A stretch of DNA of 62,892 nucleotides, counting the filler, from Nemertoderma westbladi (taxonomy: Eukaryota; Animalia; Xenacoelomorpha): the NCBI GenBank assembly GCA_032718475.1. It is 3 parts of 3 records of this genome, joined end to end, with 100 filler letters (N's around TTAATTAATTAA, not from the genome) between each part and the next. Parts side by side here need not be neighbours in the genome. Positions count along the whole stretch, not along the records: positions 15,209 to 47,016 come from JAUCBJ010002131.1; 2 more parts are not named here. One strand, given 5' to 3'. Within the stretch, counting starts at the first letter, position 1. Every line of letters starts with the position of its first letter. Below, in pieces: positions 14,189 through 47,016 of the stretch. Both the position numbers and the translations under genes were made by a program. Below the pieces are notes generated by a model. The model was given only the letters and a program-made list of their open reading frames with translations, had not been told where the DNA came from and made no database searches.

Positions 14189-15108
14189 TGTGACGGGATC
14201 AGGGGATCCCGACCGGTTCATTAAGTTACGCGTCGCCGTGTTGTTGAGAATAGGAAAATAGTTTGTTGTTGCTTTGATATTTGTTATAGACATGCAAAAT
14301 GGATAATATATGACAGCACAGTTCACAGAATAATATGATAGCAGTATGCAGTATAATAATTGATATGATGTTGTGACGGGGACGGTGCGAAATGTCACCG
14401 GTCTGCACTGAGTGACTGAGTAAACTAAACCGGTATGACAATATACTGATAATATATATCTAATCACCCTTACGGTACTGTGGCCTTATTACTTAGCGGA
14501 TGCTCTCCCGGTCTCCCATTGGCCTATAACCCACTTCACGCCTCTCACCTCTGCGGGAGTGCTTCCCCCCCCCCCCCCCCCCCGCTGTTGGTTATCTGCC
14601 CTCTCGAGGTGGTTTGACCTCTAACCTCCCTTTGTGTGGCTTTTGGGGTGTGCATTGTCCCCGTTATTGGGTGTGATACGAGATTGATTGTTATCAATCT
14701 CGTATCTCCAATATTGCTGAAAAGGGCGCCACTGCTCTAACTTTATGGGGGTAATGGAGTGGAATTGAATCCGCTCACACTCCCCCCCATGCTATCTTCC
14801 CGGTGAGAAGACCTCTGAGTGCGCTTCAATTCCGCTGGAACCCGATCTACTATCGGGTGTGGGGTGGAGTTCTTTAACTATGGAGTCGGCTTTCCAGGCC
14901 GCTCCCTCTGGGTATGATATTACTACCCCTTCTTGCTGCAACCGCAACCTATGTTGCACCAAGACATCTGACGTCTCTGTTTGAGACAATTGTGGAATCC
15001 TCACACAATTTTAAAAACTCTTTCACTCTCTAAACTCTAACTTCTCACTCTACTCTATCTTACTTCACTCTAACTCCACTGTAACTCCACTCTGCTCTCT
15101 CCCCACAC
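14189..15108 (-). mobile_element. 3' end of Bel/Pao family B copy B2: 3' LTR (14189-14779), PPT (14780-14788) and internal 3' region up to the gap
   Basis: On the minus strand the LTR begins TGTGAGCGGATTCAATTCC and ends GATCCCGTCACA, like the LTRs at 23051 and 29036. It is preceded by the same GGGAAGATAGCATGGGGGGGAG PPT block. Confidence 0.88.
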
Positions 15109-17794: not shown

Positions 17795-18294
17795 ATGTTG
17801 GTCTCTTCTGATGCTACTGATGGAGTGGATCAGCATGCATTCTTAACATTCCTGGGAGACTTTAATGCAAGTCTGCATCAATCACCTACATCGCCCTGGG
17901 TCTATAGCAATAGTGTTAACCGAAATTCTGTCCATCCTCAGGATTTTATCTCTGGAAATGGATTGTTTTTGGCTGGAACCCAGTTCAAGAAGCGAACTGG
18001 AAAGCTATGGACTCATAGTGGACCCAGTGGTCACAAGTCCCAGATAGATCATATTCTGTTTCGTAGGAAATACAGGAGCTCTATACAAGACTGTAATGCA
18101 TTTACACTTCGACCCTTCTCCAGTGATCACCGCCTTATTGTGGCCAAGGTAAGACTTAGTCTGCGTGCTAGTAGAACAACGAAATCTGCCTTGCCGCGGC
18201 ATGACTGGTCCTCTGTGTTGCAACAGCCAAGTGTGAGATCCAGCTTCACACTACAGCTGAGCAACAGGTATGAGGCTATTGCCTCTGAGGCGGC
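17795..18294 (+). mobile_element. RTE-type LINE, 5' part (APE endonuclease C-terminal half), interrupted by LTR element A1
   Basis: LGDFNA, WTH.GP.G.KSQIDHIL and SDHRLIVAKVRL are APE motifs. The sequence resumes at 37011 after TSD GCGGC. Confidence 0.9.
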
Positions 18295-19473
18295 TGTAAA
18301 GGCTTTTGCGGATATAACTAGTCATTTTCCCCGCAAAGTACTCTGTAGGTGTTTTAGCGGACATAAAAAGCCGTTTTCTTACTGTGTAGGTGTTTTAGTG
18401 GACATAAAAAGCCATTTTTCTGTATGTGTACTTTAGCGGACATAACAAGCCATTTTATGCCGCAATACGCCAAAATACTCTTAATACAGTGTGGCTTAGA
18501 TGACGAAATCTATCAGCTGATTTTGATGTCGATGTGGAGCTTTTTAACTCTCTTTGTTCAGCTCACTCGACCAATCAGAGCGATTTTCATTTTATTTGCA
18601 CAGAAGCCTACGGGAAATCGCGCAATGCATGACGGTCTTTGTTTACCTTTTTCCTGAGCCCAGAACATCGGCTTTGGAATTATTCTTAGTTTCAGACTTT
18701 AGCCAAACATTCGACGGCTTTGATTATAGGAACGTATAACTGTTATCCTGACACAGCTCAGCACAGCAAACTCATAGCAAACCAAACCAGACTCACCTTA
18801 CCTTTCACCGCATTATTTTACTGCTATTTACTGTCGGTTATTAATTGTTAGAAGTTGATGGATATGTTGTTATATTTGGAGAATATCGATAAATAATCAT
18901 AAAGCCCCAATCTTCTTGATATACTGAAGGTTAGAGAGACCGGTTACCTGTAGCAATTGCGACTTACATTATAGTGGTTTTGGAGTGAATTGAATGCTAT
19001 TTCATAATCCCTACATGTGTCAGTTGCTGTTCTCCTTATATATGATCAAATTTAGTGAAGGTCGGCAGATCAGTGTGCAGCAGTGTGCGGTAGTGTGCAT
19101 GAGTGTGACAATACAAGTACGAAAATCATTAGCCATCCCGTTGTGTTTAGTGTAAGTCATAACTGTTTACATACTTAGAGCGCCACGTCCTAAAGGAACT
19201 GTTAATATTTCCCGAAAGTAAATAATATTTGTCAGAGATTATATATTATCGATTAATCGAATAGTACAGTCAGTCTACACTGCAATAAGGTCAGAGCCTC
19301 CGAATCCAGTCTCCCTTAACTGTGGGTGAATGGTCGCGAATAGGCTGGCTTCGGCTAATGTAACTTTATATCTTATATGCAACAAATACTTGTTATAGGC
19401 TAAAGTCGATTTATAAACTAGAAGACACCTAAAATTAGCGGGTTAAACTGCTAAAGGTCTAAAAGCGCGAACA
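18295..19473 (+). repeat. 5' LTR of A1 (1179 bp)
   Basis: TGTAAAGG...GCGCGAACA. About 15 substitutions and 2 indels versus the 3' LTR by eye. U3 starts with 3-4 tandem ~45-bp GCGGACATAA..AGCC.TTTT units. Confidence 0.95.
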
Positions 19474-19484
19474 ATAACAGTTAT
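19474..19484 (+). promoter_or_regulatory. Putative self-priming primer-binding site of A1 (non-tRNA)
   Basis: ATAACAGTTAT, flush with the LTR end, is the exact reverse complement of LTR 18736-18746 (ATAACTGTTAT). No TGG. Confidence 0.75.
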
Positions 19485-21360
19485 TCTAGTTTCTTTATTG
19501 CAACGTAGGCAATAAAGTCGAAAAGTACCGGTCGACCGGTAACCTGTAGGCCTGACTGCCTAACCACCCGAACCGGTACTTACAGCAGTACAGGTACAGC
19601 AGTATTATTCTATTTTGATAATTATATACCGGTAGGTCTTGATATTTAATCAGGGACGGCCACCCTGGTTTTTTATTGGGGTTTTACTTATTTCTGTCAG
19701 TTTTATTTATCAGTAAGTGTAATATCGAGCAGAAGGCGTGTAAGCCTGCTCAGATTGTATAAATAATTTGTAGGCTGGATTGTTGTCTGGCTGTTGTCAG
19801 GTCTGAAGGGATTGCAGTGTGTGTAGAGTGTATGTCCGATAAAATACTAGTTAGGAACGTTGGGGCATCCAGTGCTGTAAGGTAAATCCCCTCCGAAAGA
19901 ATAAGTCGTACTACTGGGATAGAACGCATACTAACTAACCATTTTGGAGTCTGCATATACTGTAGTTTATTTAGGCTTGATAGTAGTCTGCCAGCATTTG
20001 GTTTGTATTTTGTTTGTGTAGTCTGTAAGGGTAGCGTAATATTTATTATTCAGAGTTTATGCGATTATTCGCAACATACACAACCCCAAGTTTATTCCTA
20101 CAGTAATTGTGCTTGTTATACATACCGTTATAGTTAAATTAACCCCGGTACTACAACAGGGCTGTTTGGCGTAGGTAAAGACTGGTGATTTTATGCTCTA
20201 GTCACTCCAGCAGATACTGTGGTTCTTTTAGCTGTACAAGTATTTTTAACTGCTGGTTATTTGTTGTATAAGTACTTGTACCTAATTTAGGGTTTAGTGT
20301 ACAGTGCTTTCCGAAGGTAATTAGTTTGTAGGCAGTATATTTGTGTTGTAAAGTGGTTAATAGGCACGTTAGCTATGGTTGGCTGCGGTAATTAACTTCT
20401 AGGTAGGAACACTCCAGGTACGTAACGTAGTACTTATAGAGCTGTAAGCTAGAGACTATAAGTCGTCAGACGGTGGTATTTTCTTATCTAGACAACGCAA
20501 TATATTTACTACTGCTTAATTATTTTCAAATACCGTAGTATCCTGTCCGTTGTAATAACCAGAAATTCTAACCCCTTGTTAGGCTGGTTTGTAAATTTCC
20601 TGTAAAATTACCCTAAAATTCGTACCTGTAATTTTTGTGTTTATTTAGAGATTGTAATCTCACCCCTTAATTGTACGTAATTTGCAGTAATAAGTAACTT
20701 AGTAAATTAGAATTATTTGTTTTAGTGTCCAATAAGTAGCACTACACTGAGAGCGTTCAGCTTCTGTGAAGTGACTCCTTACCTAGAAATAATAACATTT
20801 ATTTCAAATATTGTAACAAAACCCATTAAACGGGTATATATATATTATAAATCAACTCAAACCGATTTATAAAATAGTAGGCCTGTCATCCATCAATTAG
20901 GTCTTAATATCAGTTGGACTACTGCTTAATAACAGTAACAAAGTAAAGAAAGGTAACCCTAAAATTCAGAAATTCAGTTATTATAAAATAATTGATATAC
21001 CGGTATTTACGATAGGCTTATTATATTTATTTCTATAAATTTATGCTGAAATTATATACCGGTATTCTGTAATTTTATGTCTATAATTATACTTATATAT
21101 ACTATAAGTGTAAGCTAAGCTGTATACTGGTATTCACAGTAGGCTTATTATATATTTATATATATTTGCGCTGAAATTATATACCGGTATTCTGTGACGA
21201 AACCTAGTCTGTAATAATACTTATATATACTATAAGTGTATACCGGTATTCTAATATATTGTATATATCACGTTACACTGAGTCACGATAGTTGATACTG
21301 AATTACTAGACTTGCTTTAACTGTAGTTCTAGCAGTAAGCATTCAACTGTACAAACAAAC

Positions 21361-23050
21361 ATGGCTGACACAAAGCAAAATCTGTCAGACAGTCTCCTAG
21401 ATACAACAATCTGTGATCCAGATAGGAGTGCGGAACGTTTGAGACCGAAGTTCAACTCCCCTCCTACTGTAAGAAAGGTCATCCCTCCAGTAGTAGTATC
21501 AGACCCTAGGCTAGTCAAACACCGTAGGTCTATCATAGGCACTCGGGCTCAAGTCAAGCGGGACCAAGAGGCAGCTGTTAAACAACAGCAACACTCGAGC
21601 CGAGAACTTATTTCTCAGCGGCCCGATAGCTCCAGTAGTTCAAATACTGTAGAGTTGACACCCGAGCGCGGAGCAAAGATGGCAGAAGCAGTTTATTCGG
21701 ATCCACTTCTCATTCTTCCTGACGCCGTACTCACTAGAGTATTGATTGCGGTGGAGGAACATCAAATGGATTGGGCGAGAAGTAAGCGATCGACCAAGGA
21801 CAGTTATGCGGGATACACGAAGGAGGAACTGAAGTCTATTGTCGAGACGCAATGGAATTTCCCCGGACCCGGACTCCCGTTTAACTTATCGGAAGCTGCC
21901 TGGGAGGACTTATACAGGATGGGAGTGGTAAGGGACACTAGAGATCCAGCTGTGTGGAAGAGGTCGGCAGCAGGATATGTACAGGGATTTTTCAGCTCTT
22001 TGGAGCGATTAGAGGAACAACTGTTTCAACAACCCCAAGGACCTCAAGAGCAGGGAGAGCTGCTTTATCAAGTTCGAGAAAGAATTCTAAGAATCAGACT
22101 AATCCTATCGGCCTTTGAGGAAGCTTCGAAAAGAAGCCAAGACACGTCGTTGCAAGTTGCCGTAAAGACTTGGTTCCAGCGGGTGGGTCTCAAAGTTCAA
22201 GGAACGGCCCAGTGGAAATTTCAGCTGGCTGAGCGCTCAACCCACGGAGAATCAACAGACGCTACCTTTTCTCAAGTGGAAAGCGAAGCGACAGCAGAGA
22301 AACCTCAGAAGAAGGACGCTTTTGACATCTATCTGTCGGACCATCAACGATTTCTAGGTGACGAAGAGTTGAGGAGACAGCTGGCTGGACTTCGTCCTAA
22401 TAGTGAAGGAGCCAAATTTGTGTTGGACGCAATAGATGCGGAAATGTTAGCTGCGAACCAAGCTAAATTTGATGAAAGCATCCGCATCGCTAGGGTTCAA
22501 GAAGAACAAGTAAAGAAAAAACGTATAGAAGACATAAAGACAGCAGCAGCGGCAGCGGCAGAGGCAGAAGTGGAAAGAAAAGCGGCAGAAGTGGAAAGAA
22601 AAGCGGCAGTGGCAGCGGCAGAAGTGGAAAGAAAAGTGGCAGCGGCAGCGGCAGAAGTGGAAAGAAAAGCGGCAGTGGCAGCGGCAGAAGCGGAAAGAAA
22701 AACAGCAGAAGCGGAAAGAAAGGTAGCAGTGGCAGAAGCAGAACAGAGGGCGTCTGAAGAGACCACCCAACTAGAGTTGGAAAATCTTCAAGAGAAGCAA
22801 GACTACATAGATAAACAGAGAACAGCTAGTCAGTGGCAGATGATAAGTCGATCTACTCCCAAAAGACAGGGATTTACATCATCTGATGAAGGCGATACAA
22901 CAGATCCTGAAGGCGGAGGAAATAGATCTCGTTTCAGTAGGCGTAGAAGAACGCCTCAGAAATTGCCTAATTTGCCCCCAGCTGTGAGAATGCAACTAGC
23001 TAGCACAGACTTAGGTAGTACAGAACCCACAGACCAAATTATTAGAGTAG
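21361..23050 (+). pseudogene. A1 Gag, N-terminal part (interrupted by element B1)
   Basis: Open from ATG 21361. Removing B1 and one AGTAG joins it in frame to 29583 (..IIRV-E-RLPTIVDEP). Contains Ala/Glu/Lys coiled-coil repeats AEVERKAAVAA. Homologous to 45895-47016. Confidence 0.85.
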
Positions 23051-23266
23051 TGTTAGCGTATTCAATTCCGCTAACACAAACCCATAAAGTAAGCCGTTAA
23101 GCAATATTGGGGGCCACGAGGTTGATTACCCAATCTCGTGTCACCCCAACAAAGTGGGAAGGAGAAACACACAATAGGGGTCAGGGGCCATACCCCTGAC
23201 AGAGAGAGAATAGCAAGGGTGAAGGGAAGCACTTCAGAGGGGGGCAAAGGGTGCCAACAAGGATAT

Positions 23267-23360
23267 TAGCCAATCAGGGGGGAAGCATCGACTAGGTACT
23301 GTAACAAGGCCAAACCGTGCAATATATATTACCGGTCGATGCAATACCCATTCAGTCATC
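23267..23360 (+). promoter_or_regulatory. Pol II promoter in B1 5' LTR (CCAAT, TATA, initiator)
   Basis: AGCCAATCAG near 23268, TATATAT at 23323-23329, and TCAGT initiator-like motif at 23352-23356, about 31 nt downstream of the TATA. Confidence 0.6.
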
Positions 23361-23592
23361 TCAGTACAGTCAGGCAGAACGGTGACAGTTAAGACCATCA
23401 CCGCCGTCACCAATATATACTACCATATCATTACCGGTATACTGTGCTATCATTACTGCATTACTCCGTCTATCTCATATACATATTATCAACAATACTG
23501 GAAGAACGACAAACTTTTTTCTTTCATTCACACGGCGGGGACGCGTATGAAACAACACCGGATAAACCGGGATCCTCTCGGATCCCGTCACA

Positions 23593-23601
23593 GTCTTAAC
23601 T
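23593..23601 (+). promoter_or_regulatory. Putative self-priming primer-binding site of B1
   Basis: GTCTTAACT, flush with the LTR end, is the reverse complement of LTR 23387-23395 (AGTTAAGAC). Confidence 0.7.
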
Positions 23602-23665
23602 TACCAAGGCCTACAGACTTAACACTAGGCCTGCCGAACTGTGACTGACAGCTACTAAAGTAAAG

Positions 23666-26600
23666 ATGAGTCGAGAAGGAGAAGCGACACCGCCGCGGAC
23701 CCCGGACGACGATCTAACGATCCGCGAGGCCACGGCGAGACGGTATCAACCCACGACGCCGGATCCGTCGACGAACGATCCAGCGATCCAAGATGAGGGG
23801 GGCCGTCTACAAGGAGAGGACGAGTCGGGAGTCGAAAGGGAGAAAGACAAGTCGACGCGGAGCGAGGGTCGACGTACCGATATCGCCGACCAGCCACAGG
23901 CCGAGGGCGATGGACGGCCCACCGGAACGGCGACGGTGGGGCCGCCGGTACAACGTCGGACCCGGAGAGATGGAGGAGAGGTCGGCGACGAGGACGTCGG
24001 GGTTTCTGATCGACTTCGACGGGCCTACAACGCGACCCGGAAACTACTTAAGGAGGCCATAGAGGGGGCGAGGATAGACGAGGTAAAGTTGACAAAGGGA
24101 CTAGGTGAGTCGGATAAACATTTTGGTTATCTAAAGCGTTTTGGGCAGGAAGAACTAGCCAGCGAGAGAGCGAGAGGGGTTGCCAGCGAACTGTTTGAAC
24201 TATGGGAATGTGGGGGTATGGAACCTAGCGTAGTGTACGTAGGTCCATACTTAGTCGGTGCCCGGGGAGTAAAATTAGTGGGTTGGAAGAGACCTGAGGA
24301 GGGCGAATCCGAGGTTAAACCCGAGGATGCGGTCTCGTCGGTCGGAGGAAGTTCCGGGAGGCGGGGGAAAGTTGGTGGGACGGGGGGCGACGGGAGTCCG
24401 TCGCAACCGATAAGTCTGCTACATCCTCCGAAAAAGAAAGAAGGGTGCGGGAGATAAATCTGGCGTATGATTTAGAAATTGCGGAGCTAGCCCAGAGTGT
24501 TAGAGAGTGGGAAAGGGAGGATAGAGAGAGAGCCGAGAAGTGTAGAGATCAGGAGAGAGAGATAGAGAGTAAGCGCGTGCGGGATGATTTGCGTGCCCGA
24601 CTAGAGTGGCTTACGCAATATCAAGCCAAACTGAATCAGCGCCGACTAGAACTGGCGCGGTTGGAACTATCAGAGAGTGAGACCCCACTTACATACACCG
24701 GGCGAGAGAACCAGAACTGGTGTAGCCGTACGGGCGGGGGGGGGGGGGGGTAGTAGTAGTACGTTAGAAATAGTTGATATTAATAGTACCATAGTAGATA
24801 ACCCTAATCCCTTTATTACAGGAAATATTTTACCCAGTAGGCCTAATTTAAATTTAAATTCAAATAATATTAGTTCAAATATTCAGAATAATTCAAGTAA
24901 TTCTAATTTAAATAATTTAAATAATAATCCCGTCTCAGATCCTAATAATTTAATTGATTTAACAAATAATATTGGGAATGGTGCTATTAATATGAGCGTG
25001 TCGGACGTACATAACCCGGCAGACGGGGGCCTGGTAGGCCACGCAGTTAATAGGCAGGAGGTGGCGGGGTTGAGCCAACCCGACGGCGGCCTGGTAGGCC
25101 ACGTAGTTGGTAGGCAGGAGGTAGTGGGGTTGAGCCAACCCGAGGTGGGCCTGGTGGGCCACGCAGTAGTAGAGAGAGAGGCGGGGGTGAATAGACCCAG
25201 CCATAGTAAAGACAGTGCGTCGACTAGAGAGGGGTGTAGAGACGAAGTAAGAGATAGTGAAGTTAGATGTGGCGAGTGGGGGGGGGGGGCTACCGGCGCC
25301 CCAACACATAAGGTTAGTGGCGAGAGAGGGGGGGCAGAGAATGCCCCACAAGAGGGGTGTAGAGGTGTAGTAAGAGATAGTGAAGTTAGAAGTGGCGGGT
25401 GGGGGGGGGGGGCTACGGGCACCCCACCGCGAGAGATTAGTAGCGAGAGGGGGGGGGGGCAGAGAGTGTCCCACAGGCGTCGGCGGATAATGCGCGGGCC
25501 GAGCTAGGTAAACCGCAACACCCGGCGACGGAGAGTAATAGGGGGATTGCGAGTATCCCCAGCGGCGTGCGATTGAGCAGAGAGAGGCAGGTTGACGTCG
25601 CGAGAGGGCAGACGAAGCGTCGAGCCCGATTAGAAGAGGGAAGAAGAACAATGGAGTTTAACCGGGAGGTCGACGAGAGATCTCACGAGCCGGAATACTG
25701 CACTGAAAAGAGAAGAAGAGGAGATAGTAGAAAAAGCGTCGCCACGAACGATAGGAGTGCGAGGACGGATAACGGACCGTCGATAGTAGAGATGGACTTA
25801 GGGAGTCAGTGGGGTCGAACTTCGGGAGATTGCCGTCGCCCCGGAGAAACGCACCGCACACCAAGAGAGGGGTACAGGACGTCCCAATATAAAGTCGAGA
25901 ACAGGAGAGGGGATTGAAGAGAAGCTTCCCGACGGGATATAGCTGCCGATCGAGAGTGCGGTAGTCGTGGGGAGATTCGAGATTCAAGAAGATTAAACTT
26001 CGGTTCGAAAGGGCACATGCAGACTGCAGGACATACTGTAGGCCTTACTGCACATACTATTATAGGCCATGCTGGGAGAGTTATAATAGGCGATAGGGTA
26101 GCGCGAACGACGGGATTAAACCCGGAAGCCGCGGAGTACATACCGGTAGGTAGGCAAGAAGTGGGTAGGCCTATATCGGTACAGCAGCATGACTATAATA
26201 CACAGGGACATAACATATATCCAGGGAAGGGGAGAGTTATTTGAGATAGATGTATGGGCCCCAATATATTAACATCAACCCCAGTACCAAACATACCGGC
26301 CGGGGGGGGGGGACAGGGTGACATTCCCCCATCACAATATCGACAATATACCCCAATAGGAGCAAGAACATCGAATTCCCTGGACGAGAACAGGTCGTGC
26401 GGACAGTCGCTACCACACGCGGCCATACAGGGGACTGCTAGTCCACAGCTAGCTGGTAGGGCCACACCGTGGCAGGGACAGAAAGAAAATAACACCAAAA
26501 ATAAACACAATCCCAATATACCCAGTAGGCCGAGTCTAGGCAATCGAAACACTAAATCGGTACATATAAACCTACGCGCGATACGTGAAGGACTATACAG

Positions 26601-26820
26601 GAAACGCTATAATCCAGGATTCGAATGTCAATTACATCGGGACGGAACCCATAAGACCAGGAATTGTAAGCACTGGCAAGCGTTGCCCAAACGAGATCGT
26701 GTAGCCTACACAGACGCAAACGGACTATGTCATCGATGTGTGGTAAAAGGACACAGATCTGGAGAGTGTTGGAAAGGGAGAGGATGTGAAAGGGGCAGAG
26801 AAGCCCATGAGCAAACATAA
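23666..26820 (+). pseudogene. B1 Gag remnant (frameshifted)
   Basis: Successive ORFs include VKPEDAVSSVG (Bel/Pao gag P.DS.S motif), a coiled-coil, internal 60-bp and ~123-bp repeats, and terminal knuckles CQLH...H....C, CHRC....H....C. No pol follows. Confidence 0.75.
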
Positions 26821-27213
26821 AGGAGCCGGGAAAGTAGAAGGAGGCGTGTTGCATACGCACGCGGGGCTGGCACGGTGCGAGGGGGCATTGCATGGACGGG
26901 CGTCGTGTATACCGAGGTACGAGCGGGGGTCGTCGAGGCCTTTAATGCCAGCGCACATACGAAGGGGGAGGCCAGCAGAGGTAGTACCGAAGAGAGTGTG
27001 GCGAAGAGTTAGAGGGCGTATAGGAGGGCAGCGGGAGAGTGCCTACTGGAAGAAGGGGCACCTGAGAGTTTTTAGTCGTCCAAAGTTTTGGACTGAGGGG
27101 GGTGGGAATGAGGGCGAGACGCCCTTCCCACGCATAAAATATAAAATAATTATTTAATTAAAAATAATTAAATAATAAAGTAGGTAGAAGTTAGGTAGTA
27201 AGAGAGTAGTACC

Positions 27214-27618
<405 letters not shown>

Positions 27619-28094
27619 GAGGTACGTAGTACCGGTGGTTAGTAGAGTTAGAGGTTAGTAAGAGGGTATGTAGTACCGGTTAGTAAGAGTAGAGTTGGAA
27701 GTTAGTAAGAGTAGTACCGTTAAGAGAGAGTTAGCAGAGTAGAGTTAGTAGTAGAGGTTGTGGGCACCGTAAGCGCCACGTAGAAAGTAGTAGCAGTAGA
27801 GGTTGTGGGCACCGTAAGCGCCATGTAGATAGAGTTAGTAGGGGATGCGCTGAACTTAGTGGGGCACGGGCGTGATGACGTGATTGATGTAAGAGCAGGG
27901 TATGTTAATTAGGGTGGGTGCCGGGCACAAGAGGTGCCGGGCACAAAAGTTAGTAGAGAGTTAGTAGAGTTAGTTGAGTTAGTAGAGAGTTAGTAGAGTT
28001 AGTAAGAGTTAGTAGTAGTTCACATAATTAACGTACCCACTCTGCCGGCACTCAGAGCGTCACGTGCAGTCGAGTAGACGAAAGGGAGTAAGAT

Positions 28095-28480
28095 GTAGAG
28101 AGTGTTAGAAGTAGTAGAGAGGGCACATAGGGTGCCAGAGAGTAGAATAGTAGAGAGGGCACATAGGGTGCCAGGTAGTAGAGTTAGAGAGTTAGAGGTA
28201 ATAGAGTAGTTGAGACGGGCACATAGGGTGCCAGGTAGTAGAGTTAGAGAGTTAGAGGTAGTAGAGTAGTAGAGACGGGCACATAGGGTGCCAGGTAGTA
28301 GAGCTAGAGAGTTAGAGAGTAGAGTAGTAGAGACGGGCACATAGGGTGCCAGGTAGTAGAGTTAGAGAGTTAGAGGTAGTAGAGTAGTAGAGAGGGCACA
28401 TAGGGTGCCAGGTAGTAGAGTAGTAGAGAGGGCACATAGGGTGCCAGACAGTAGAGTGGTCGTGGGCACCGTGAGCGCCA
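28095..28480. repeat. Purine-rich ~36-60-bp tandem repeats with GGGCACATAGGGTGCC cores in the B1 3' region
   Basis: Seven copies of GGGCACATAGGGTGCCAG separated by AGTAG/AGTTAG-rich spacers. Confidence 0.85.
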
Positions 28481-29582
28481 CGTAGTTAGAAGAGTCGGTA
28501 AGAGTTAGAGAGAGTTAGTAGAAGTAGAGAGTTAGTAGGAGTTAGTTAGACTTAGTAGAGTTAAAGTTAGTAGGCTTAGAGAGATAGTTAGAGTTAGTAA
28601 GAGAGTCAGATAGTTAGCAAGTAAGTAGTAGGTAGATAGTATGATAGCACAGGGGTAGCTTTAGAAATTAGGGCCTTAGGGGGTGACAGAGAGTAGAGAG
28701 GTGATAGTGCGGAGTGCGAAGAGAGCGTGGGCGCAATTCAAGTGTGGGGGAGGAGAAGTGAGAGGAAGAGTGTGGGACGAGGAGGTCCGGGAGTATGCGA
28801 GAGTTAGGGTGAGAGTGGTGAAAGTGTTGGGGAAACAAAAATCGTGTGAGAGGAGCGCACGATCGGCCCGACACGAGTCGCCAGAGTGACATCATACCCA
28901 TAGGGAGCGGCCTGGAAAGCCGACTCCAAGAAAATAATACCACCCCACGCCCGATACTAGATCGGGATCCAGCGGAATTGTAGCGCACTTGAGTTGGATG
29001 CTATCTTCTTACCGGGAAGATAGCATGGGGGGGAGTGTTAGCGTATTCAATTCCGCTAACACAAACCCATAAAGTAAGCCGTTAAGCAATATTGGGGGCC
29101 ACGAGGTTGATTACCCAATCTCGTGTCACCCCAACAAAGTGGGAAGGAGAAACACACAATAGGGGTCAGGGGCCATACCCCTGACAGAGAGAGAATAGCA
29201 AGGGCGAAGGGAAGCACTTCAGAGGGGGGCAAAGGGTGCCAACAAGGATATTAGCCAATCAGGGGGGAAGAATCGACTAGGTACTGTAACAAGGCCAAAC
29301 CGTGCAATATATATTACCGGTTGATGCAATACCCATTCAGTCATCTCAGTACAGTCAGGCAGATCGGTGACAGTTAAGACCATCACCGCCGTCACCAATA
29401 TATACTACCATATCATTACCGGTATACTGTGCTATCATTACTGCATTACTCCGTCTATCTCATATACATATTATCAACAATACTGGAAGAACGACAAACT
29501 CTTTTCTTTCATTCACACGGTGGGGACGCGTACGAAACAACACCGGATAAACCGGGATCCTCTCGGATCCCGTCACAAGTAG

Positions 29583-31763
29583 AAAGACTCCCTACTATAG
29601 TAGATGAGCCTGAAATAATTAGGCCTGTTCTCGAAGCCACCCCTTCTGTGATAGAGACCCCTGTACTTCCAGAACCTAACTCTAAATTCCCTTTGCACAG
29701 TACTAAACTACCTGTATCCAGTAGGACAGTTCCTCAGTCAACTCCGGTCCTGGACGCCGAGCGAGACATTAACAATTTGTCACCCGTCGTCCCTCGTCTA
29801 CCCGCTACTATGTTGGCGGCTCCCGCTTCGGTGGTAGAGTGGGTGGATGAGCGACGGCGGGGGATGGATATTCTCCTCGGGCAGATGGAGGAGAATCAGG
29901 CACGCTCCTCCCAGCAGGTCCGAGAGTTGGAGGGTACTGTTCAACAGTTAAAGGGAACATTAAGAGAGAGTAGGTTAGAATTGCAGGAAGTGCAGCAGAG
30001 TATCGCATTAGAACGCGATAAGTTAGTAAATCTACAAAAGGGTATACCACCACCCTCTGTAACCATGTGTCAACCTGTTAGGTCTGAAGTATTTCATGCG
30101 CAAGGTGTGGAGCCTACACACATCTATACTGCTAGTGAAGTAGAAACTGCTATAGTAAACCCTATTAAGGGTAATTATAAACCTGTTGACAATGATATTC
30201 CATATAGACCTATATAATCCAAGAAATTTATATACCGATAACTTGATATTAAATAACACGATGGCCCAAGAAAGTTTTACGCGTCAAATGGCTAGAACCG
30301 AAGCCCGTCAAGCGGTAAAGGTGGGAGAGATCGTCAAGTTCAACGGAGATGAGATGAAATGGTTACCTTTTAATGAATATTATAAAGATAACATACAGAA
30401 CTCTGTGCTATCTAACGGAGAGAAACTTAGATTCCTCATCGAGTGCTTGGAAGGATCTCCCAAGTTAATGGCGTTAAAGTTTATTGGACATCCAGATGGA
30501 TTAAGACAAGTTTGGGATACACTAAACATCAGGTATGGTAATAGGAATAACATAGCTAGGTATTTGTATGCGAAATTAGTAGCGCCACGAAAGTTTCTTA
30601 GCACCGGGATTATAGAATTTTCCGATGAGATCCAGGACATTTGTAGACAATTAGATTGGCTAGGTAAGTCTCATGAGTATCAGAGTTCTATGGTTATTGG
30701 AGCTGTAGCATCTACCTTGCCAAAGGGTGGAGTGGGTACTCGTTGGGACAAAAGAGTTCTGTATATGATGGAACAACAACGAAGAGACCCTACCATGGCT
30801 GATCTCATGTCATTCTTAGATGGAGGAGTAAAATTACAGCTCCTAAAGCAGTCCAGAGAGAAGACACTGGAAAATAAGGTAAGTGAGAAACCCGTTTCTA
30901 GGAGAAAGGTAACACCAGTGTGTTATACAGACGACGGCGAAAGCCAGGCCTCTCAAGAGGAGAACAACGGGAAAGACACCAAAAGATCTTACTATGTCAA
31001 CAAAGCGCCTAAGGGCGTAAGTAAATTTAAGTCTCGAACTAGTGATAGGAGAGAACAGGTAACAAAAACTCCTCCTACTTCTCCTAAGAGAATTCATGTA
31101 AGAAAGCCTGAGGAAAGAACGAGTGTGCACAACACTACCAAAGGTAAAGTAAGTAACATCAAACCAAAATGTGCATTGTGTGACGGGCCCCACCGTTTAA
31201 GTGTGTGTGATGAATTCTTAAAGAAATCCCTAAAAGATAGGCGTGATGTCATGTGGGATAAGCGATTGTGTTATAATTGTCTCAGACAAGGACACCAACG
31301 GCGAACCTGTTACTCCGATGCGAGGTGTGCTAAGTGCGGCGCGAAACATCATATCTTGTTGCACACCGAATTTGAAAGAAACAGCCCGAGTCAGGTAAGT
31401 GAGTCCGAACTACATGTCCAATTCAGTGATGTGAACGACACTGACCAAAGTTCTGAGATGGAAGGATTCTACACGGATGAATTCTCAGACAAAAACGAAT
31501 CCTGTTATCTAATAAACACCGCAGTGTATCGAGCACTTACGTATGAGACTGAAACCGATAGTGAGCTCCCCCTAACTATTCCTGACCGACAACCATCTTG
31601 GAAAGCGCCAACTTCCAATGTAGGAATCCGAGAATTTCCCGTAGTGCAGTCAAGAGTAGGTTGGTACTTCACTGGACCTTCCCGTAGGACACTCATGGAA
31701 AGGCTACCCAAAGATCAGGTCCATCAGGTGAGTGAATGGGAAGAAGACATTAGTGAGGGATAG
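29583..31763 (+). pseudogene. A1 Gag, C-terminal part: DUF1759-like capsid region and three zinc knuckles
   Basis: KFNGDEMKWLPF..Y..NI....LSNGEKLRFL..CL.G and L..RYGN (Pao DUF1759), then CALCDGPHRLSVC, CYNCLRQGHQRRTC and CAKCGAKHHILLH. One frameshift near 30210. Confidence 0.92.
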
Positions 31764-31819
31764 ACAACAACAACTGAGGGAACACCATACTCCTCAGATA
31801 ATGACGATATTAACTCTAA

Positions 31820-32462
31820 TGTAGATCAATGGAGACATTGCCTTGGGACGATTAATCCAGCCGACATCGCTTCCAGATGAGCAACTCCTCAAGAACTGAT
31901 AGATACTCCAGACTGGTTAGGTGGACCCGACTTCCTAAGTAAAGAAGAGGATGAATGGCCTCCTCATCTCACCACGGCTGAGAATAGACAAGCCAAGGGA
32001 GCGGAGATAGTCAAACCTAAAACCCGGACGAGTAAATCAAAGTTATTTAAACCCACGATTGATCTGTCTGTACTACACATTTCAGGGGACGACGCTGTGG
32101 GTCTAAACTCCCCCGCCACAAATAACTCTGTTGTGGAAATCAGAGAAAGAGACTGGAAATCTGGAACACCAGACGTCTCGCAGGGACTCTCACCTCTCCT
32201 GCAGGGAGCGATAAACCACTATAGCTCCTGGAATCGGCTTTGTAAGGCCGTCGTGTATTTGAAGCGATGTTTCTATCGTCACTATTCCAGAACGAAGAGG
32301 AAACCTGGAATTGTATTCGAAACACAACAACTCAATCGCCCAGTTGGTCGTTTATGTTTACTGGAAAGAGACCGAGAACTGTCCGGAAACTATGGAAGGC
32401 AAGATACTCTTCCCACGACCACCTCCCTAATCCAACAAACATCTAGGGACTCCCCAACGTAA
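31820..32462 (+). pseudogene. A1 pol remnants (end of RNase H region fused to extreme integrase C-terminus)
   Basis: QWRHCLGTINPADIASR*..W.GGPDFL....WP, YSSWNRL..AV.Y and RPVGRLCLLE remain. Protease, RT and integrase core are absent. Confidence 0.85.
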
Positions 32463-34169
32463 CAGCGTCTGGAGTGGGTGTGTGACTATATTATTTTATA
32501 TTTTGTTTTTATTATTTTATATTTATGTATGTATTATTATGTAATTTTATTATAATCGTTTTCTTTAATTTTATTTAGTAGAATGTTATTTTAGCGATTA
32601 TTTAGTAGATTAGTGCAATATATATTAGTGTTTATTACTTACTTACTTATATTATATTATATATTTAGTGCAATGGCGAGAAATAATTCTTTTTCTCTTT
32701 CCTTACTGTCCGTATCATAATATAAATACGTGACTACAGTAAGATGAAATTTCCGTACTTATTAAAGTACAATAAAGCTCCTACTATACTCAAGTATTAT
32801 TGGTAAGTAGAGTATTAGGAATGCAAAGTTCAGATCCTCGTGTCTCGGCTAAACCAAGCTCTGGGTAGACCTTGGAAACGACTTGCCTCTTCTCACTGAC
32901 ATTGCTTCTTGCAATATTGCTCTCCTACCGTATATTAAATAATACATATAGTAGCGTGATGTCCCTTTAACAGTAGCGTAAAACGCAAAATCAATCTGTT
33001 AAACCCTTTGACCATCTGTAATTCTAGTCGATTAAGATATCGCGGCACCCACCAATATACTTGAAAGACAAAATTCTAGAATCAATGGTTAACGTCCCCA
33101 GACATGTTCTGGAATAAACCAGTGCCCATCTTAAATATTAACTATTAATATTTATAAAATCTGTCAAACAAATACAATAGAGTAAATACTTAAAAGATAA
33201 CTCTAGAAAATCTATAAATTAAAATCTGTTAAATTTTAGATCCTTTAAAATTCTAGTCGATTAAGATATCGTAGCACTTACCGATACTTTTAAAAGGACA
33301 AATTTCCTAGAATTAAGGATCCTAGTCCCCAGACATGCTCTGGAATAAAATTATGTCTGTTTTAATGATAAATAATAAAATTTACGGGAATAAATTTAAA
33401 TTCATCTTTTTAATGAATTTGATAAATTGTCATTTTTATACAATTTATAACATTCCCAAAATTCCATTAATTAATAGATCATGGGAGCGGAGATTCACCC
33501 TATTATGTATATTAGTGTGCGAGAATCTCCAATATATAGTCAATAGCCGATAAAATTCATAAAATCATGTATAAAGAAGAATATTGACAATTAAAGAATT
33601 ACTATTAAATAGCATCCCAGATCTGTATGCATGAGAATTACCCTAATTCTACTGCAAGCTTTCCATAATGTCACCATGGCAACAACCACGCTAGAATTAG
33701 AAGTGAGTTAAAAGAACAATAAAGCTTACCCCATTGAATAGCATAAGGAATAAATAGCACACTGCTAGTATCCAAGGATACATAATAATAACGTGGCATT
33801 CTGAAAGGCACTTGACTAACGGACAAATGGCCCGAATGTGTGCGGTTTGTGACAGTTGTGTGGAATTTGTGCGTTTATAGGTGAATGTTACTACTAAAGT
33901 GTGTTTACAGTAGCGAGTCGCAGTTGTGAAAGTAGCTCTACCTCTGCAGTAAGAACCTGAAGTAAATCTAAGCCCTTGGGACGGACAGTGGAGTGACTCG
34001 CGCTGGTTGTTGTTGTCGTTGTGCAGCTACTATGTTGGCGATAGGCACATCGGCGACAGTACATCAGCGCTGAGGATCTTGCGCTGTCCGGGGGCCATGA
34101 GGGGTAGGCAGCGACGCCCGCTAGCCTAATTATAACTAATTATATTATTTATAAACTCATATAGCAGCT

Positions 34170-35720
34170 ATGACTGAGTTGATATAAGATGATCTTGGTA
34201 TCAGGGAGCGATATACTCTACCGTTGCAAGCGTTTGTTGATAGCTTAATACGCGGCGACGCTAGTCCAACTACTACGGAGGACGATGGTCGTTATATCGA
34301 ACCGCCAATGTCCCAGGAGCAACTCACTCGTGAATTGGACTATCGAAAATTCACTGCTCACTATACGCATCGTAATGGTACGCATATGGACTTCTTAACT
34401 ACTGTTCATCCTATCGATTTACACAATACGGACGATGTCGACACCGAAAGGGAAATAGTCCTATTTAAATATCATACCCAGCGGAGTAGGAACGATAAAC
34501 TGAGAATCGAATGCGAAAATTCGATTCGAAATCGACTTGAAAGAGAAGATGTTAAAGAACCGGATAAACGCAGTGACTCCAACGTATATTTGGAATGCTT
34601 GAGAGAAACATTGTAAAACTAAAGAAAGATCACCCGCGTTTCCCCTAGAAGACGTGCGTCTTTGGTATTATTGCGATGAATGCCCAAGACCCAACCAACA
34701 AACGGAAGGACATAAACATCCGCGGAGACGTTGTTCTAAACACAGTTTTACTCGCTATATTTACGGGAGTTTCGAGCGAAACTTGTTTGATGTATCACCT
34801 ACGCTCGCTTGACTCAAACGATCCTTAAATAAACCTATGATCAGAGTTCCGGAATACTCGGTCAGACCTCCTCACTCCCTAGTGAGACCTCAGACTCTTG
34901 ATCCTAATAGTATCACGGATCCTCCCGAACTGTACTCACTGTTCAAAGATCTAGTGTTACCCGAACAATTAGTCGGTGGCACTCCGGTTGTGGGCTCCCT
35001 AAATATTTGCCCATCTTACCTAGCCGGATTGGGACGCGGACATCTAATATCGCCATTCAACCGTATCATCGTCCCAGTTTAACCCGATACAACCTGTCAC
35101 CGAGGTGGAGGAGAGAGTTGTACGAAACGCGTTGGACACTATTCGTCTAAAGATCGGAAAAGGAACCTACAATTGTTTAGAGAAACGTAAATTGCAGCAA
35201 CAAGTCCAAGCGGTAAACGAATTAGCTTTATCTCAGTTCGATCAGGAAATCCAGAATCTATAAGAAGATATCGAACTTGGACGACTCTACTTTCTGCAAG
35301 AGTTTGGACGAATGTTTTCAACAACAAGCGGAGGAAAATCAGCTCGAGGAGAAGCATATCGATTCCGATAGAGCCTGAGAACGCGAGTTGGAAAGAATCA
35401 TCAAACCGAGGAAATTTCTCTCTACACACGGTCCACCTACCGCTCTCGTGCAAACGACCCGTCAGGGACCAGTAAGAGCTGCTGTCTTAAAACGCGCTCT
35501 CAAGGTTGTTCGACCTCGTTCCACTGAGGTTGATACCGATCAACCGGGTACCTCGACCGGCGGATACACCGACCGTAACCCTAAACCTTCTGATGCAATT
35601 GCATTGCACCCTTCACCCAAGAGTTATAGCCCTCCTAGTAAAGTGGCTCGCCCCAAAGAGAAAGGGACTCTTGCTAGCCTCAAAAAACTGCGTAAACGCC
35701 GTTGGCGTAAGAAAGACTAA
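34170..35720 (+). pseudogene. Decayed accessory ORF (about 500 codons) between pol and 3' LTR of A1, unknown function
   Basis: ATG 34170 is in frame with the 34224 ORF (one TAA). Consecutive ORF pieces 34224-34616, 34837-35082 and 35388-35720 are bridged by open stretches. Cys/His cluster, coiled-coil and basic C-terminus. Confidence 0.65.
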
Positions 35721-35798
35721 CTGTTTAGAGTATTTTTATATTTTAGAAACTGTGATTTTTTATATTTTATAGAATTAAATCCCATTTTCTGGGAGCGG

Positions 35799-37005
35799 TG
35801 TAAAGGCTTTTGCGGATATAACTAGTCATTTTCCCCGCAAAGTACTCTGTAGGTGTTTTAGCGGACATAAAAAGCCGTTTTCTTACTGTGTAGGTGTTTT
35901 AGTGAACATAAAAAGCCATTTTTCTGTATGTGTACTTTAGCGGACATAACAAGCCATTTTATGCCGCAATACGCCAAAATACTCTTAATACAGTGTGGCT
36001 TAGATGACGAAATCTATCAGCTGATTTTGATGTCGATGTGGAGCTTTTTAACTCTCTTTGTTCAGCTCACTCGTCCAATCAGAGCGATTTTCATTTTATT
36101 TGCACAGAAGCCTACGGGAAATCGCGCAATGCATGACGGTCTTTGTTTACCTTTTTCCTGAGCCCAGAACATCGGCTTTGGAATTATTCTTAGTTTCAGA
36201 CTTTATCCAAACATTCGACGGCTTTGATTATAGGAACGTATAACTGTTATCCTGACACGGCTCAGCACAGAAAACTCATAGCAAACCAAACCAGACTCAC
36301 CTTACCTTTCACCGCATTATTTTACTGCTATTTACTGTCGGTTATTAATTGTTAGAAGTTGATGGATATGTTGTTATATTTGGAGAATATCGATAAATAA
36401 TCATAAAACCCCAATCTTCTTGATATACTGAAGGTTAGAGAGACCGGTTACCTGTAGCAATTGCGACTTACATTATAGTGGTTTTTGAGTGAATTGAATG
36501 CTATTTCATAATCCCTACATGTGTCAGTTGCTGTTCTCCTTATATATGATCAAATTTAGTGAAGGTCGGCAGATCAGTGTGCAGCAGTGTGCGGTAGTGT
36601 GCATGAGTGTGACAGATAACAAAGCATTTCCTAAAGAATGCGCTTTATACGAAAATCATTAGCCATCCCGTTGTGTTTAGTGTAAGTCATAAATCTGTTT
36701 ACATACTTAGAGCGCCACGTCCTAAAGGAACTGTTAATATTTCCCGAAAGTAAATAATATTTGTCAGAGATTATATATTAACAATCAATCGAATAGTACA
36801 GTAAGTCTACACCGCAATAAGGTCAGAGCCTCCGAATCCAGTCTCCCTTAACTGTGGGTGAATGGTGGCGCATAGGCTGGCTTCGGCTAATGTAACTTTA
36901 TATCTTATATGCAACAAATACTTGTTATAGGCTAAAGTCGATTTGTAAACTAGAAGACACCTAAAATTAGCGGGTTAAACTGCTAAAGGTCTAAAAGCGC
37001 GAACA
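35799..37005 (+). repeat. 3' LTR of A1 (1207 bp)
   Basis: Direct repeat of 18295-19473, preceded by the PPT and followed by the TSD. Confidence 0.95.
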
Positions 37006-42682: not shown

Positions 42683-45600
42683 TGTAAAAGCTTTTGCGGA
42701 CATAACAAGTCATTTTTCTCCGCAATATACCGTGTAGGTGCTTTAGCGGACATAACAAGCCATTTTCTCCGCAATGTACCGTGTAGGTGCTTTAGCGGAC
42801 ATAACAAGCCATTTTCTGCCGCAATGCGCCTAATACTCTAAAAGACTGGAACTCAGATGACGAAATCTGTCAGCTGATTTACTGTAAACGTGGAACCTCT
42901 CTTTGTTCTGATCAGCCAATCAGAGCGATTTTCATTTTGTCTTGTACAGAGGCCTACGGAAAACCGCGCAATGCATTACGGTCTTTGTTTACCTTTTCTG
43001 AGCCCCAGAACACCGGCTTAGAATTCTTCTGTGCTTCTGTAGAAGTTTCAGACTTTGGCCAAACATTAGATGGCTTTGATTACAGGAATGTAAATCTATT
43101 ATCTGGCTGGTAACATTACTGCAGTAATACCGACTGCAACGCAACCTGGTCACCTGGTCACCTGGAGCACTGCAATCCACATATCAACCAAACTGCTGAA
43201 CTGACTTGCATAAGTAACATATACTGATTGTTCACCGCATTATTTACTGTCTGTTATTAATTGTTATATATTGATGGATATGTTGATATATTTGGAGAAT
43301 ACCGATAAATAATCATAAAACCCCCAATCTTCTTGATTACTGAAGGTAAGAGGGACCGGCTACCTGTAGCAATTCGACTTACATTATAGTGGTTTTTGTG
43401 TGAATTAAATGCTATTTCATAATCCCTACATGTGTCAGTTGCTATCCTCCTTATATATGATCAAATTCAGTGACGGTCGGCAGATCAGTGTGCAGTAGTG
43501 TGAAGTAGTGTGAAGTGGTGTGAAGTGGTGTGACAGATAATAAAGCATCTCCTAAAGAATGCGCTATTTACGAAACTCAGAGGCCATCTCGTTGTGTTTA
43601 GTATAAGTCATAACTCTGTTTTATATACTTAAAGCGCCCATCCTAAAGGAACTGTTAATATTTCCCCGAAAGTGAATAATATTGTCAGAGATTATATAGT
43701 AACGATCAATCGAATAATACAGTAGGTCTGCACCGCAATCATTTCAAAGCATCCGAATCCAGTCTCCCTTAACAGTGGGTGAATGATCGCGCATAGACTG
43801 GCTTCGGCTAGTGTAACTTTATGTGCACTAAATACTTGTTATAGGCTAAAGTCGATTTATAAACAAGAGGACACCTAAAATTGGCAGGTTAAACTGCTAA
43901 AGGTCTGAAAGCGCGAACAATAATAGATTTTAGTTTCTGATTGCAGTGTAGGCAATAAATATTTGTCTATTGTTCTGGTAAGAACAATAATAGATTTAAA
44001 CTCTTGATTGCACCGTAGGCAATAAAGTCGAAGGTACCGGTCGAACGGTAAGCTGTAGGCCTAACTGCCCAACTACCCGAACCGGTACTTACAGGTACAA
44101 CAGTATTATTCGATTTTGATAATTATATACCGGTAGGTCTTGATATTTAATCAGGGACTGTAGCCCTGGTTTTTTATTGGGATTTTACTTATTTCTGTCA
44201 GTTTTATTTATCTGTAAGTGTAATAATGAGCAGAAGGCGTGTAAGCCCGCTCAAATTGTACAGATAATTTGTAGGCTGGATTGTTGTCTGGCTGTTGTTA
44301 GGTCTGAACAGATTGCAGTGTGTGTAGAGTGTATGTCCGATAAAGTACTAGTTAGGAAGGTGGGGGCATCCAGTGCTGTAAGGTAAATCCCCCCCCCCCC
44401 CCCAGAAAGAATAAGTCGTACTACTCAGTTAGAACGCATACTAACTAACCATTTCGGAGTCTGCATATACTGTAGTTTATTTAGGCTTGCCAGTAGTCTG
44501 CCAGCATTTGGTCTGTATTTTGTTTGTATAGTCTGTACGGGTAGCGTAATATTTATTATTCAGAGTCTATGCGAGTATTCGCAACCTACATAACCCCCCA
44601 AGTTTATTCCTACAGTAATTGTGCTTGTTATACATACCGTTATAGTTAAATTAACCCCGGTACTACATCAGGGCTGCTTGGCGTAGGTAAAGACTGGTGA
44701 TTTTATGCTCTGGTCACTCCAGCAGATACCGTGGTTCTTTTAGCTGTACAAGTATATTTAACTGCTGGTTATTTGTTGTATAAGTACTTGTACCTAATTT
44801 AGGGTTTAGTGTACAGTGCTTTCCGAAAGTAATTAGTGTGTAGGCAGTATATTTGTGTTGTAAAGTGGTTAATAGGCACGTTAGCTCTGGTTGGCTGCGG
44901 TAATTAACTTCTAGGTAAGGACACTCTGGGTACATAATGTAGTACTTATAGTTTAAGACTATAAGTCATCAGACAGTGGTATTTTCTTATCTGGACAGCG
45001 CAATTTATTTACTACTACTTTATTATTTTCAAATACCGTAGTTTCCTGTCCATTTGTAATAACCAGAAATTCTAACTCCTTGTTAGGCTGGTTTGTAGAT
45101 TTCTTGTAAAATTACCCTAAAATTTGTACGTATAACCTTTTAGTGTTTATTTAGAGATTGTAATCTCACACAGTAATTGTATGTAATTTGTAGTAATAAG
45201 TAACTTAGTAAAGTAGAATTATTTGTTTTAGTATCCAACAAGTAGCACTTCACTGAGAGCGTTCAGCTTCTGTGCAGTGACTCCTTACCCAGAAATAATA
45301 ACATTTATTTCAAACCTTGTCAAAAAACCCTTGTACGGGTACATAATATATTATAAATCAACTCAAACCGATTTATAAAATAGTAGGCCTGTTATACACC
45401 AATTAGGTCTTAATATCAGTTGAACTACTGCTTGATAACAGTAATAAGTAAAGGGAAGTAACCATAAAAATTCAGAAATTCAGTTATTATAAAATAATTG
45501 ACATTACCGGTATTTATGGTAGGCTTATTATATTTATTTATATAAATTTAGGCCGAAATTATATACCGGTATTCTGTAATTAATCCTAGTCTATAATAAT

Positions 45601-47016
45601 ACTTATACATACTATAAGTGTATGCTGTATACCGGTATTTACGGTAGGCTTATTATATATATTTATATAAATTTATGCTGAAATTATATACCGGTATTCT
45701 GTGACTAAACCTAGTCTGTAATAATACTTATATATACTATAAGTGTATACCGGTATTTTAATATATTATATATATATCACGTTACACTGAGTAACGGTAT
45801 CGGTAATTAATTACTAGGCTTACAGTTGTTACTGAATTACTAGATTTACTTTAACTGTCGTTATAGTAGTAGGCATTCAACTGTACAATCAAACATGGCT
45901 GACACAAAACAAACACTGTCAGATAGTCTCCTAGAAAGAACAGTCTGAGACTCAGATAGGAGTGCAGAACATCTGAGACCGAAGTCCAAGTCCCCTCCTA
46001 CTGTAAGAAAGGTCATCCCTCCAGTAGTAGTATCAGACCCTAGGCTAGTCAAGCACCGTAGGTCTATCATAGGCACTCGTGCTCAAGTCAAGCGGGACCA
46101 AGAGGCAGCTGTTAAACAGCAGCAACACCCGAACCGAGAACTTATTTCTCAGCGGACCGATAACTCTAGCAGTTCAGACACTGTAGAGTTGACACCCGAA
46201 ATCGGAGCAAGGATGGCAGAAGCGGTTTATTCGGATCCACTTCTAATTCTTCCTGAAGCCGTACTCACTAGAGTATTGATCGTGGTGGAGGAACATCAAA
46301 TTGATTGGGCGAGAAGTAAGCGATCGACCAAGGACAGTTATGCGGGATACACAATGGAGGAACTAAAGTCTATTGTCGAGACACAATGGAACTTTCCCGG
46401 ACCCGGACTCCCGTTTAACTTATCGGAAGCTGCCTGGGAGGACTTATATCGGATGGGAGTAGTAAAGGATACTCGAGATCCAGCTGTGTGGAAGAGGTTG
46501 GCAGCAGGATATGTCCAGGCATTCTTCAGTTCTTTGGAGCGACTAGAAGAACACCTATTCCAACAAAGACAAGGACCTCAAGAGCAGGGAGAGCTGCTTT
46601 ATCAAGTTAGAGAACGAATCTTACGGATCAGACTGATCCTTTCCGCTTTTGAGGAAGCCTCGAAGAGAAGCCAAGACACGTCGTTGCAAGTTGCCGTAAA
46701 GACTTGGTTCCAACGGGTGAGTCTTAAAGTCCAAGGAACGACACAATGGAAAATTCAGCTAACTGAGCGCGCGACCCACGGAGAATCAACAGACGCTACA
46801 GCTATATAGCTATAAGTTACATCAGAGAAACCTCAGAAGAAGGACGCTATTGACATCTATCTGTCGGACTATCAACGATTTATAGGTGACAAAGAGTTAA
46901 GGAGAAGGCTAGCTGGACTTCACCCTAATAGTGAGGGAGCCAAATTTGTGTTAGACTCATTAGATGCGGAAATGTTAGCCTCGGAGCAGGCTAAATTTGA
47001 TGAAAGCATCCTCATC
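42683..47016 (+). mobile_element. Bel/Pao family A copy A2: 5' LTR (42683-43919), ~2-kb leader, gag start (45895), cut by gap
   Basis: LTR TGTAAAAGC...GCGCGAACA is homologous to A1. Leader and gag are colinear with 19474-22490. Gag has stops at about 45946 and 46807. Confidence 0.93.
43920..43930 (+). promoter_or_regulatory. Putative self-priming primer-binding site of A2
   Basis: ATAATAGATTT, flush with the LTR end, is the reverse complement of LTR 43092-43102 (AAATCTATTAT). Confidence 0.75.

Follow-up and report, generated by a model that had tools for sequence, protein, structure and literature searches.

A primer-binding site complementary to its own LTR in a Bel/Pao-derived element of Nemertoderma westbladi suggests self-primed reverse transcription

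Introduction

Self-priming of reverse transcription has been described for the Tf1/sushi group of LTR retrotransposons and predicted for Tcn1 and the TAR lineage of Copia, according to the accessible portions of the papers concerned (PMC6317226, PMC4600332). Tf1 and Tf2 of S. pombe, Tj1, and the Tf1/sushi group of Ty3/gypsy carry no tRNA site; an 11-nt primer-binding site (PBS) adjoins the LTR and is complementary to it, and the same arrangement is found in the element reported here. In the Tf1 system, the U5-IR stem is a supporting structure. About half of the Tf1 cDNA keeps the copied PBS, as given in the available part of PMC11042837. For Tcn1 (Ty3/gypsy) and for the Ty1/copia elements TAR, Houba, and Osr-1, which are plant and fungal elements of other superfamilies than ours, self-priming was predicted from sequence; the criterion, as worded in the accessible text, is that a stretch of 10 nt or more complements the 5' LTR and begins within 0-5 bp of the LTR end. 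Half-tRNA primers without TGG also occur in Copia, according to the same portions (PMC6317226 / PMC4600332).

For the Bel/Pao superfamily, the ICTV profile of Belpaoviridae gives an 18-nt PBS for tRNA-Arg or tRNA-Gly with a host tRNA as the primer, LTRs of 0.2-1.2 kb, and a purine tract, and it calls the replication of the family poorly understood (PMC8742986). Here, we analyzed a window of 62,892 nt from the genome of N. westbladi (assembly GCA_032718475.1), in which an earlier note had proposed that a Bel/Pao element, termed A, lacks a tRNA-type PBS and uses its own 5' leader as the primer.

Results

Element A and its affinity to Bel/Pao

Self-comparison of the first 47 kb and direct reading delimited element A to 18295-37005, a length of 18.7 kb (12.2 kb without the nested element D), with TG..CA LTRs and a GCGGC target duplication (Table 1). 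TG..CA ends and a short target duplication are traits of Bel/Pao LTRs. The element interrupts a LINE, whose endonuclease-like frame lies to its left and whose RT lies to its right, and its empty site is seen in contigs that continue past 18294 into the right flank. The alignment of the two LTRs has 16 substitutions over 1179 bases (1163 matches) plus indels, so the insertion is fairly young.

Table 1. Coordinates of the features of elements A, B, and D in the window.
Feature	Coordinates	Strand	Remark
5' target-site duplication of A, GCGGC	18290..18294	+	direct reading
5' LTR of A, 1179 bp, TG..CA	18295..19473	+	
Conserved stretch upstream of the primer of A, candidate 5' leader	18692..18735	+	35/40 identical to B over 18696-735
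Candidate self-primer of A, exact complement of PBS	18736..18746	+	
11-nt PBS of A, adjoins LTR, without TGG	19474..19484	+	positions 5, 8, 10 vary in family
Leader hairpin	19493..19517	+	9 bp in A; shorter stem, different loops in B
First ORF of A, interrupted by nested D	21310..23050	+	no Pfam match at E 0.001
5' LTR of D, 542 bp	23051..23592	+	TSD AGTAG before
Candidate self-primer of D	23387..23395	+	
9-nt PBS of D, without TGG	23593..23601	+	complement of 23387-95
Degenerate Cys-His array of D, weak similarity to Bel/Pao gag	26590..26814	+	E 6.4e-4 and 0.012
3' LTR of D	29036..29577	+	7 differences in 542; purine tract before, TSD AGTAG after
Bel/Pao gag of A, DUF1759, triple Cys-His array	30159..31763	+	
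Short pol relic of A, contains stop codon	31812..31961	+	E 5.9e-7 to P0004
Purine-rich tract adjoining 3' LTR of A	35791..35798	+	
3' LTR of A, 1207 bp, TG..CA	35799..37005	+	GCGGC after
5' LTR of sister copy B	42683..43919	+	88% identical to LTR of A, aligned positions
Candidate self-primer of B	43092..43102	+	3 changes vs A
PBS of B	43920..43930	+	3 complementary changes vs A
Second PBS copy in duplicated leader of B	43987..43998	+	12 bp match to 43091-102

The gag of A matched DUF1759 (PF03564, E 5.6e-11). A search of longer proteins gave two matches among 1055 candidates, both of them polyproteins with Bel/Pao domain sets (PF05380/PF17921/PF18701), and these homologues mapped by tblastn to the Cys-His array of A at E 2.7e-15 as well as to its 50-residue pol relic at E 5.9e-7. 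The Bel/Pao identity proposed in the earlier note is upheld by this evidence. When the polyprotein homologues were mapped onto A, no RT or integrase match was found within the element, and no autonomous partner was seen. Given a gag and a pol relic with Bel/Pao matches, together with the lack of RT and integrase matches, element A is, judged from its sequence, a non-autonomous Bel/Pao derivative; with no RT, it cannot copy itself.

Element A resembles Belpaoviridae (Semotivirus) in its DUF1759 gag, Cys-His array, pol relic, 1.2-kb LTRs, and purine tract. It differs from them in having no 18-nt PBS for tRNA-Arg/Gly, in missing most of a pol whose order in the family is PR-RT-RH-IN, in an extra upstream ORF, and in its length without the nested element, which exceeds the 4.2-10 kb of the family. 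We class A by its gag as Bel/Pao-derived and not as a typical member, because a tRNA-type PBS is absent.

Several further features were observed around these elements. In both A and its sister copy B, a long upstream ORF (21310-23050 and 45949-46809) with tandem coiled-coil-like repeats precedes the true gag, some 1.8 kb downstream of the LTR, and neither ORF had a Pfam match at E 0.001. Three 41-bp tandem units occupy 18339-18456 at the start of the LTR of A, where B has 49-bp units. The LTR stretch 19168-19218, with the deepest coverage in all four sequencing runs described below, is nearly invariant in A, B, and a third LTR, C. The latter stops at 741, within another Bel/Pao pol, and offers no PBS for comparison; this second, degenerate pol end plus integrase (742-2440) is interrupted by LTR C, and the one homologue found for it is a bivalve protein with 48% identity. 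Copy B stops at an N gap shortly ahead of an 11-kb satellite (47156-58118; 41-bp unit, 268 copies, 94% matches). Directly after the satellite comes an ORF (58434-59297; 287 codons) whose product has tectonin/Hyd_WA propeller repeats.

The PBS of element A is complementary to its own LTR

Direct reading confirmed that ATAACAGTTAT (19474-84), located directly after the 5' LTR of A, is the exact reverse complement of 18736-46, 727 nt upstream, and that no TGG is present in the 60 nt after this LTR. An 18-nt PBS for the end of tRNA-Arg or tRNA-Gly is likewise lacking in A, B, and D, in all of which TGG is absent within 55 nt of the 5' LTR. When the LTR was dinucleotide-shuffled, 4 of 3000 shuffles produced an anchored match of at least 11 nt, a count that rose to 11 of 3000 with the PBS allowed to start 0-5 nt later. 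Within the window, exact complements of the PBS were present only in the two LTRs of A, the second copy of the primer 11-mer lying at 36240-50 in the 3' LTR. Other partial complements in the LTR of A (19159-67 and 19197-204) were rejected as partners, as they do not follow the PBS of B.

The earlier note had also drawn pairings on both sides of this core and had proposed, on their basis, a primer longer than that of Tf1. The pairings do sit where they were drawn, and the conserved stretch 18692-18735 contains the flanking arms, a TCAGA which we take to be Inr-like, and a YAG/G. However, once primer and PBS were removed, the flanking helices were matched in strength by 63 of 300 shuffled leaders for A, 55 of 300 for B, and 135 of 300 for D, and some of the arms could pair elsewhere, as in 18695-704 with 19398-407 or 19484-92 with 19415-23. 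The longer primer is therefore not borne out by these helices. In the 9-bp stem 19415-23/19484-92 of A, the leader side varies in contigs and the U5 side has no variant row. The 11-bp primer/PBS core is real, and its extension by flanking helices is putative.

A primer assembled by splicing was considered as well. An acceptor-like YAG/G (TAG in A and CAG in B) precedes the primer closely, at 18729-18730; together with a donor-like AG/GT at 18930 it is a candidate signal for splicing or trans-splicing of the leader. For A, no GT/GC..AG intron gives a junction-spanning complement of at least 8 nt; for B, an intron yields 11 nt, which is no gain, and a spliced primer was rejected for both copies; for D, 10 nt versus 9 contiguous nt with a weak GC donor is unconvincing. 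Some nematode Bel/Pao elements encode their own tRNA-like primer. An element-encoded primer of this kind was rejected here, the window containing no tRNA gene, and an Rfam scan over 18295-36000 gave only two weak miRNA-family matches. Among the matches listed in our literature searches, in the text they covered, there was no paper on such a primer in nematode Bel/Pao elements.

Compensatory changes in sister copy B

The internal region of B is 89% identical to that of A. The PBS of B differs from that of A at positions 5, 8, and 10, and the LTR of B differs at exactly the three partner positions. Because all three PBS changes are matched in its LTR, the primer/PBS pairing of B stays perfect; the first four PBS bases are the same in both copies. 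Under a uniform model, given three changes per side, placing and matching them by chance has a probability of about 2e-4. The pairs formed with swapped A/B partners had energies of -4.3 and +0.4 kcal/mol, versus -10.1 and -8.0 kcal/mol for the own pairs. The anchored match of B arose in 6 of 3000 shuffles, a count which is not independent of that for A, since the two copies are related and supply the only two linked primer/PBS pairs of the family. Immediately before the primer, 35 of 40 positions are identical between A and B, compared with 5 of 40 (ungapped) after it, and the BLAST match ends at 18747.

The leader of B contains two PBS copies, both of which match the LTR of B (11 and 12 bp). 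They belong to a duplicated PBS-hairpin unit (43920-44030) with different spacers and a short imperfect inverted copy of the LTR end between them, a structure that was possibly generated by a template switch between two subfamily RNAs.

A second family with a self-complementary PBS

Element D, nested in the first ORF of A, has an LTR unrelated to that of A (best BLAST E 0.27) and a PBS entirely different from the PBSs of A and B. Its anchored 9-nt match arose in 10 of 3000 shuffles, and in 30 of 3000 with offsets. The primer of D is preceded by a TATA-like motif at 23323 and an Inr-like motif at 23354, about 65 and 30 nt upstream. In fold predictions, the primer helix of D had a pair probability of about 0.96 from starts at 23300-23356 and of 0.25 if the RNA begins at the primer; the predicted fold has the layout that had been drawn for A. 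As to its coding content, tblastn gave the two weak Cys-His matches listed in Table 1, no Pfam match was obtained, and the Atlas zinc-knuckle clusters scored 0.85, which is a lead only. D is probably a second family with a self-complementary PBS, and its putative Bel/Pao identity stems from the weak Cys-His matches only. A diverged 3' end plus LTR start of a D-family element, 77% identical, was also seen on the minus strand at 14664-14924, near an N gap; no 5' LTR was found for this piece.

Another reading is that the match is due to chance or is a relic without present function, such as an old inversion or a dimerization palindrome. The PBS of A does form an interrupted palindrome, and the region holds further stems of 8-10 bp. 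Nevertheless, the PBS of B is not palindromic and its pairing is kept, so a palindrome or dimer role was rejected; the anchored matches of A, B, and D were reached by only 4, 6, and 10 of 3000 shuffles, the A and B counts being related; and all three changes in B are compensated. We regard chance or a relic as very improbable.

Variation of the PBS within the family

Contigs from four of seven public runs were aligned to the window; of these four, run X4 had no PBS coverage. The element A family is abundant, with 8633 records in run X2 and 2874 in run X3. Three PBS positions vary in both of the latter runs: 19478 (C>T) at 8% of the summed depth in X2 and 6% in X3 (22 and 9 contigs), 19481 (T>A) at 37% and 44% (20 and 11 contigs), and 19483 (A>T) at 6% and 3% (11 and 2 contigs), these percentages being depth sums and not copy numbers, from alignments in which divergent contigs are clipped and alleles are unlinked to the LTR side. 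They are the same three positions that differ between A and B. No variant rows were found at 19475-77, 79, 80, 82, and 84 in the X2 and X3 contigs; 19474 varies too, in a mixture with 3' LTR flanks, and the spacer 19485-90 is rich in indels. In X5, which has a second organism label, one contig carries another PBS allele before it returns to the leader-hairpin sequence. A pattern scan of a metagenome for more copies returned four loci, all chance matches without similarity to the window, and scans of viral contigs and genome contigs found no relative.

A host RNA, either a tRNA half or another small RNA, could alternatively be the primer, with the LTR pairing acting as a switch that hides the PBS. 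This would agree with the tRNA priming that ICTV gives for the family (PMC8742986), with the TGG-less half-tRNA primers of Copia, and with the first four PBS bases shared by A and B. A polymorphic PBS, on the other hand, agrees poorly with a single fixed tRNA primer. Such a primer should restore the PBS sequence in every cycle, but A and B disagree at 3 of 11 positions, which also vary in two runs, and the PBS of D is entirely different. A host-RNA primer is, in our judgment, distinctly improbable.

Start site and predicted folding of the leader

If element A is primed by its own leader, transcription would start at or upstream of 18736. In whole-leader fold predictions, which over 800-1000 nt are unreliable either way, the primer helix of A had a probability of 0.5-0.8 from starts at 18715-36 and of at most 0.02 from 18660-705; that of B had at most 0.1 from the equivalent of 18692, and the helix with the second PBS of B reached about 0.99 for a start at 43071, compared with about 0.45 at 43092 and 0.1 at 43048.

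A TATA-like sequence at 19037 and an Inr-like TCAGT at 19070 are present in both A and B, downstream of the primer, and they support a different reading, in which transcription starts at about 19070 and the PBS pairs with the 11-mer of the 3' LTR (36240-50), so that the RNA is circularized or the primer comes from the 3' end or a co-packaged RNA. Should these motifs be the promoter, the PBS would have its partner in the 3' LTR copy, whose 11-mer is identical and binds as well (-15.3 versus -15.0 kcal/mol), and the covariation would look the same. Against this, the more distant LTR C keeps neither motif, the TATA/Inr-like pair of D is upstream of the primer, and a donor-like AG/GT at 18930, kept in LTRs A, B, and C, hints weakly at transcription from further upstream. 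We consider a downstream start unlikely.

Discussion

Collectively, reverse transcription in the element A family is probably primed by its own RNA in a Tf1-like manner, as far as can be judged from pairing and covariation. What the earlier note had proposed has gained strength at the level of the self-complementary PBS, through the two-sided changes in B, the PBS polymorphism, and element D, and the priming event itself is still something that we infer from these. A cut is predicted after 18746, which would place the resulting 3' end opposite the final base of U5, and the RT/RNase H making this cut may be supplied in trans by an autonomous relative, the cleavage itself being as in Tf1. The primer would then remain attached and be copied back into the PBS during plus-strand synthesis; such copy-back would account for a PBS that follows its LTR base by base across a mere 11-12 nt.

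The A family resembles Tf1 in this presumed mechanism and is not a member of the Tf1/sushi group, from which A differs in that its gag and pol relic match Bel/Pao and not Ty3/gypsy. The PBS start ATAAC is common to A and Tf1 (accessible part of PMC11042837). By the criterion that was used for Tcn1, TAR, Houba, and Osr-1, as the available text states it, A and B would be predicted self-primers, whereas the 9 nt of D fall below its cut-off.

The earlier note knew of no description of self-priming in Bel/Pao, and in the literature searched we came across no such report either. Full-text searches returned none from the text they covered, with Repbase Reports, GyDB, subscription journals, and bioRxiv supplements lying outside their scope, where a prior mention is possible. 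Within the portions available, PMC3601003, PMC5443660, PMC13524379, and PMC3286476 held no report of it, and the PBS starts had no occurrence in seven supplementary files of PMC13524379. Term look-ups found no PBS or tRNA text in Bel/Pao or LTR surveys (PMC554778, PMC3118150, PMC6238403) or in papers on other retroelement lineages.

A broader reading extends to both families and is put forward tentatively: it is possible that several unrelated Bel/Pao families of this animal have dropped tRNA priming for an internal self-primer 30-45 nt below the cap. A leader fold of several helices, namely the primer helix, a short second one, the leader hairpin, and a closing helix, would hold this primer until a single cut frees it, and its sequence would be returned to the PBS in every cycle, so that primer and PBS evolve as a locked pair. 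Were it true, self-priming would occur in all three LTR-retrotransposon superfamilies, in a form unlike the 5'-terminal 11-mer of Tf1.

A self-primed Bel/Pao lineage, if true, would correct the ICTV description of tRNA priming and would add a third superfamily to a mechanism demonstrated only for Tf1. Such a lineage would account for the empty output of PBS finders on elements of this kind, and it may imply that these elements no longer depend on the supply of tRNA and evade silencing by tRNA fragments at the PBS.
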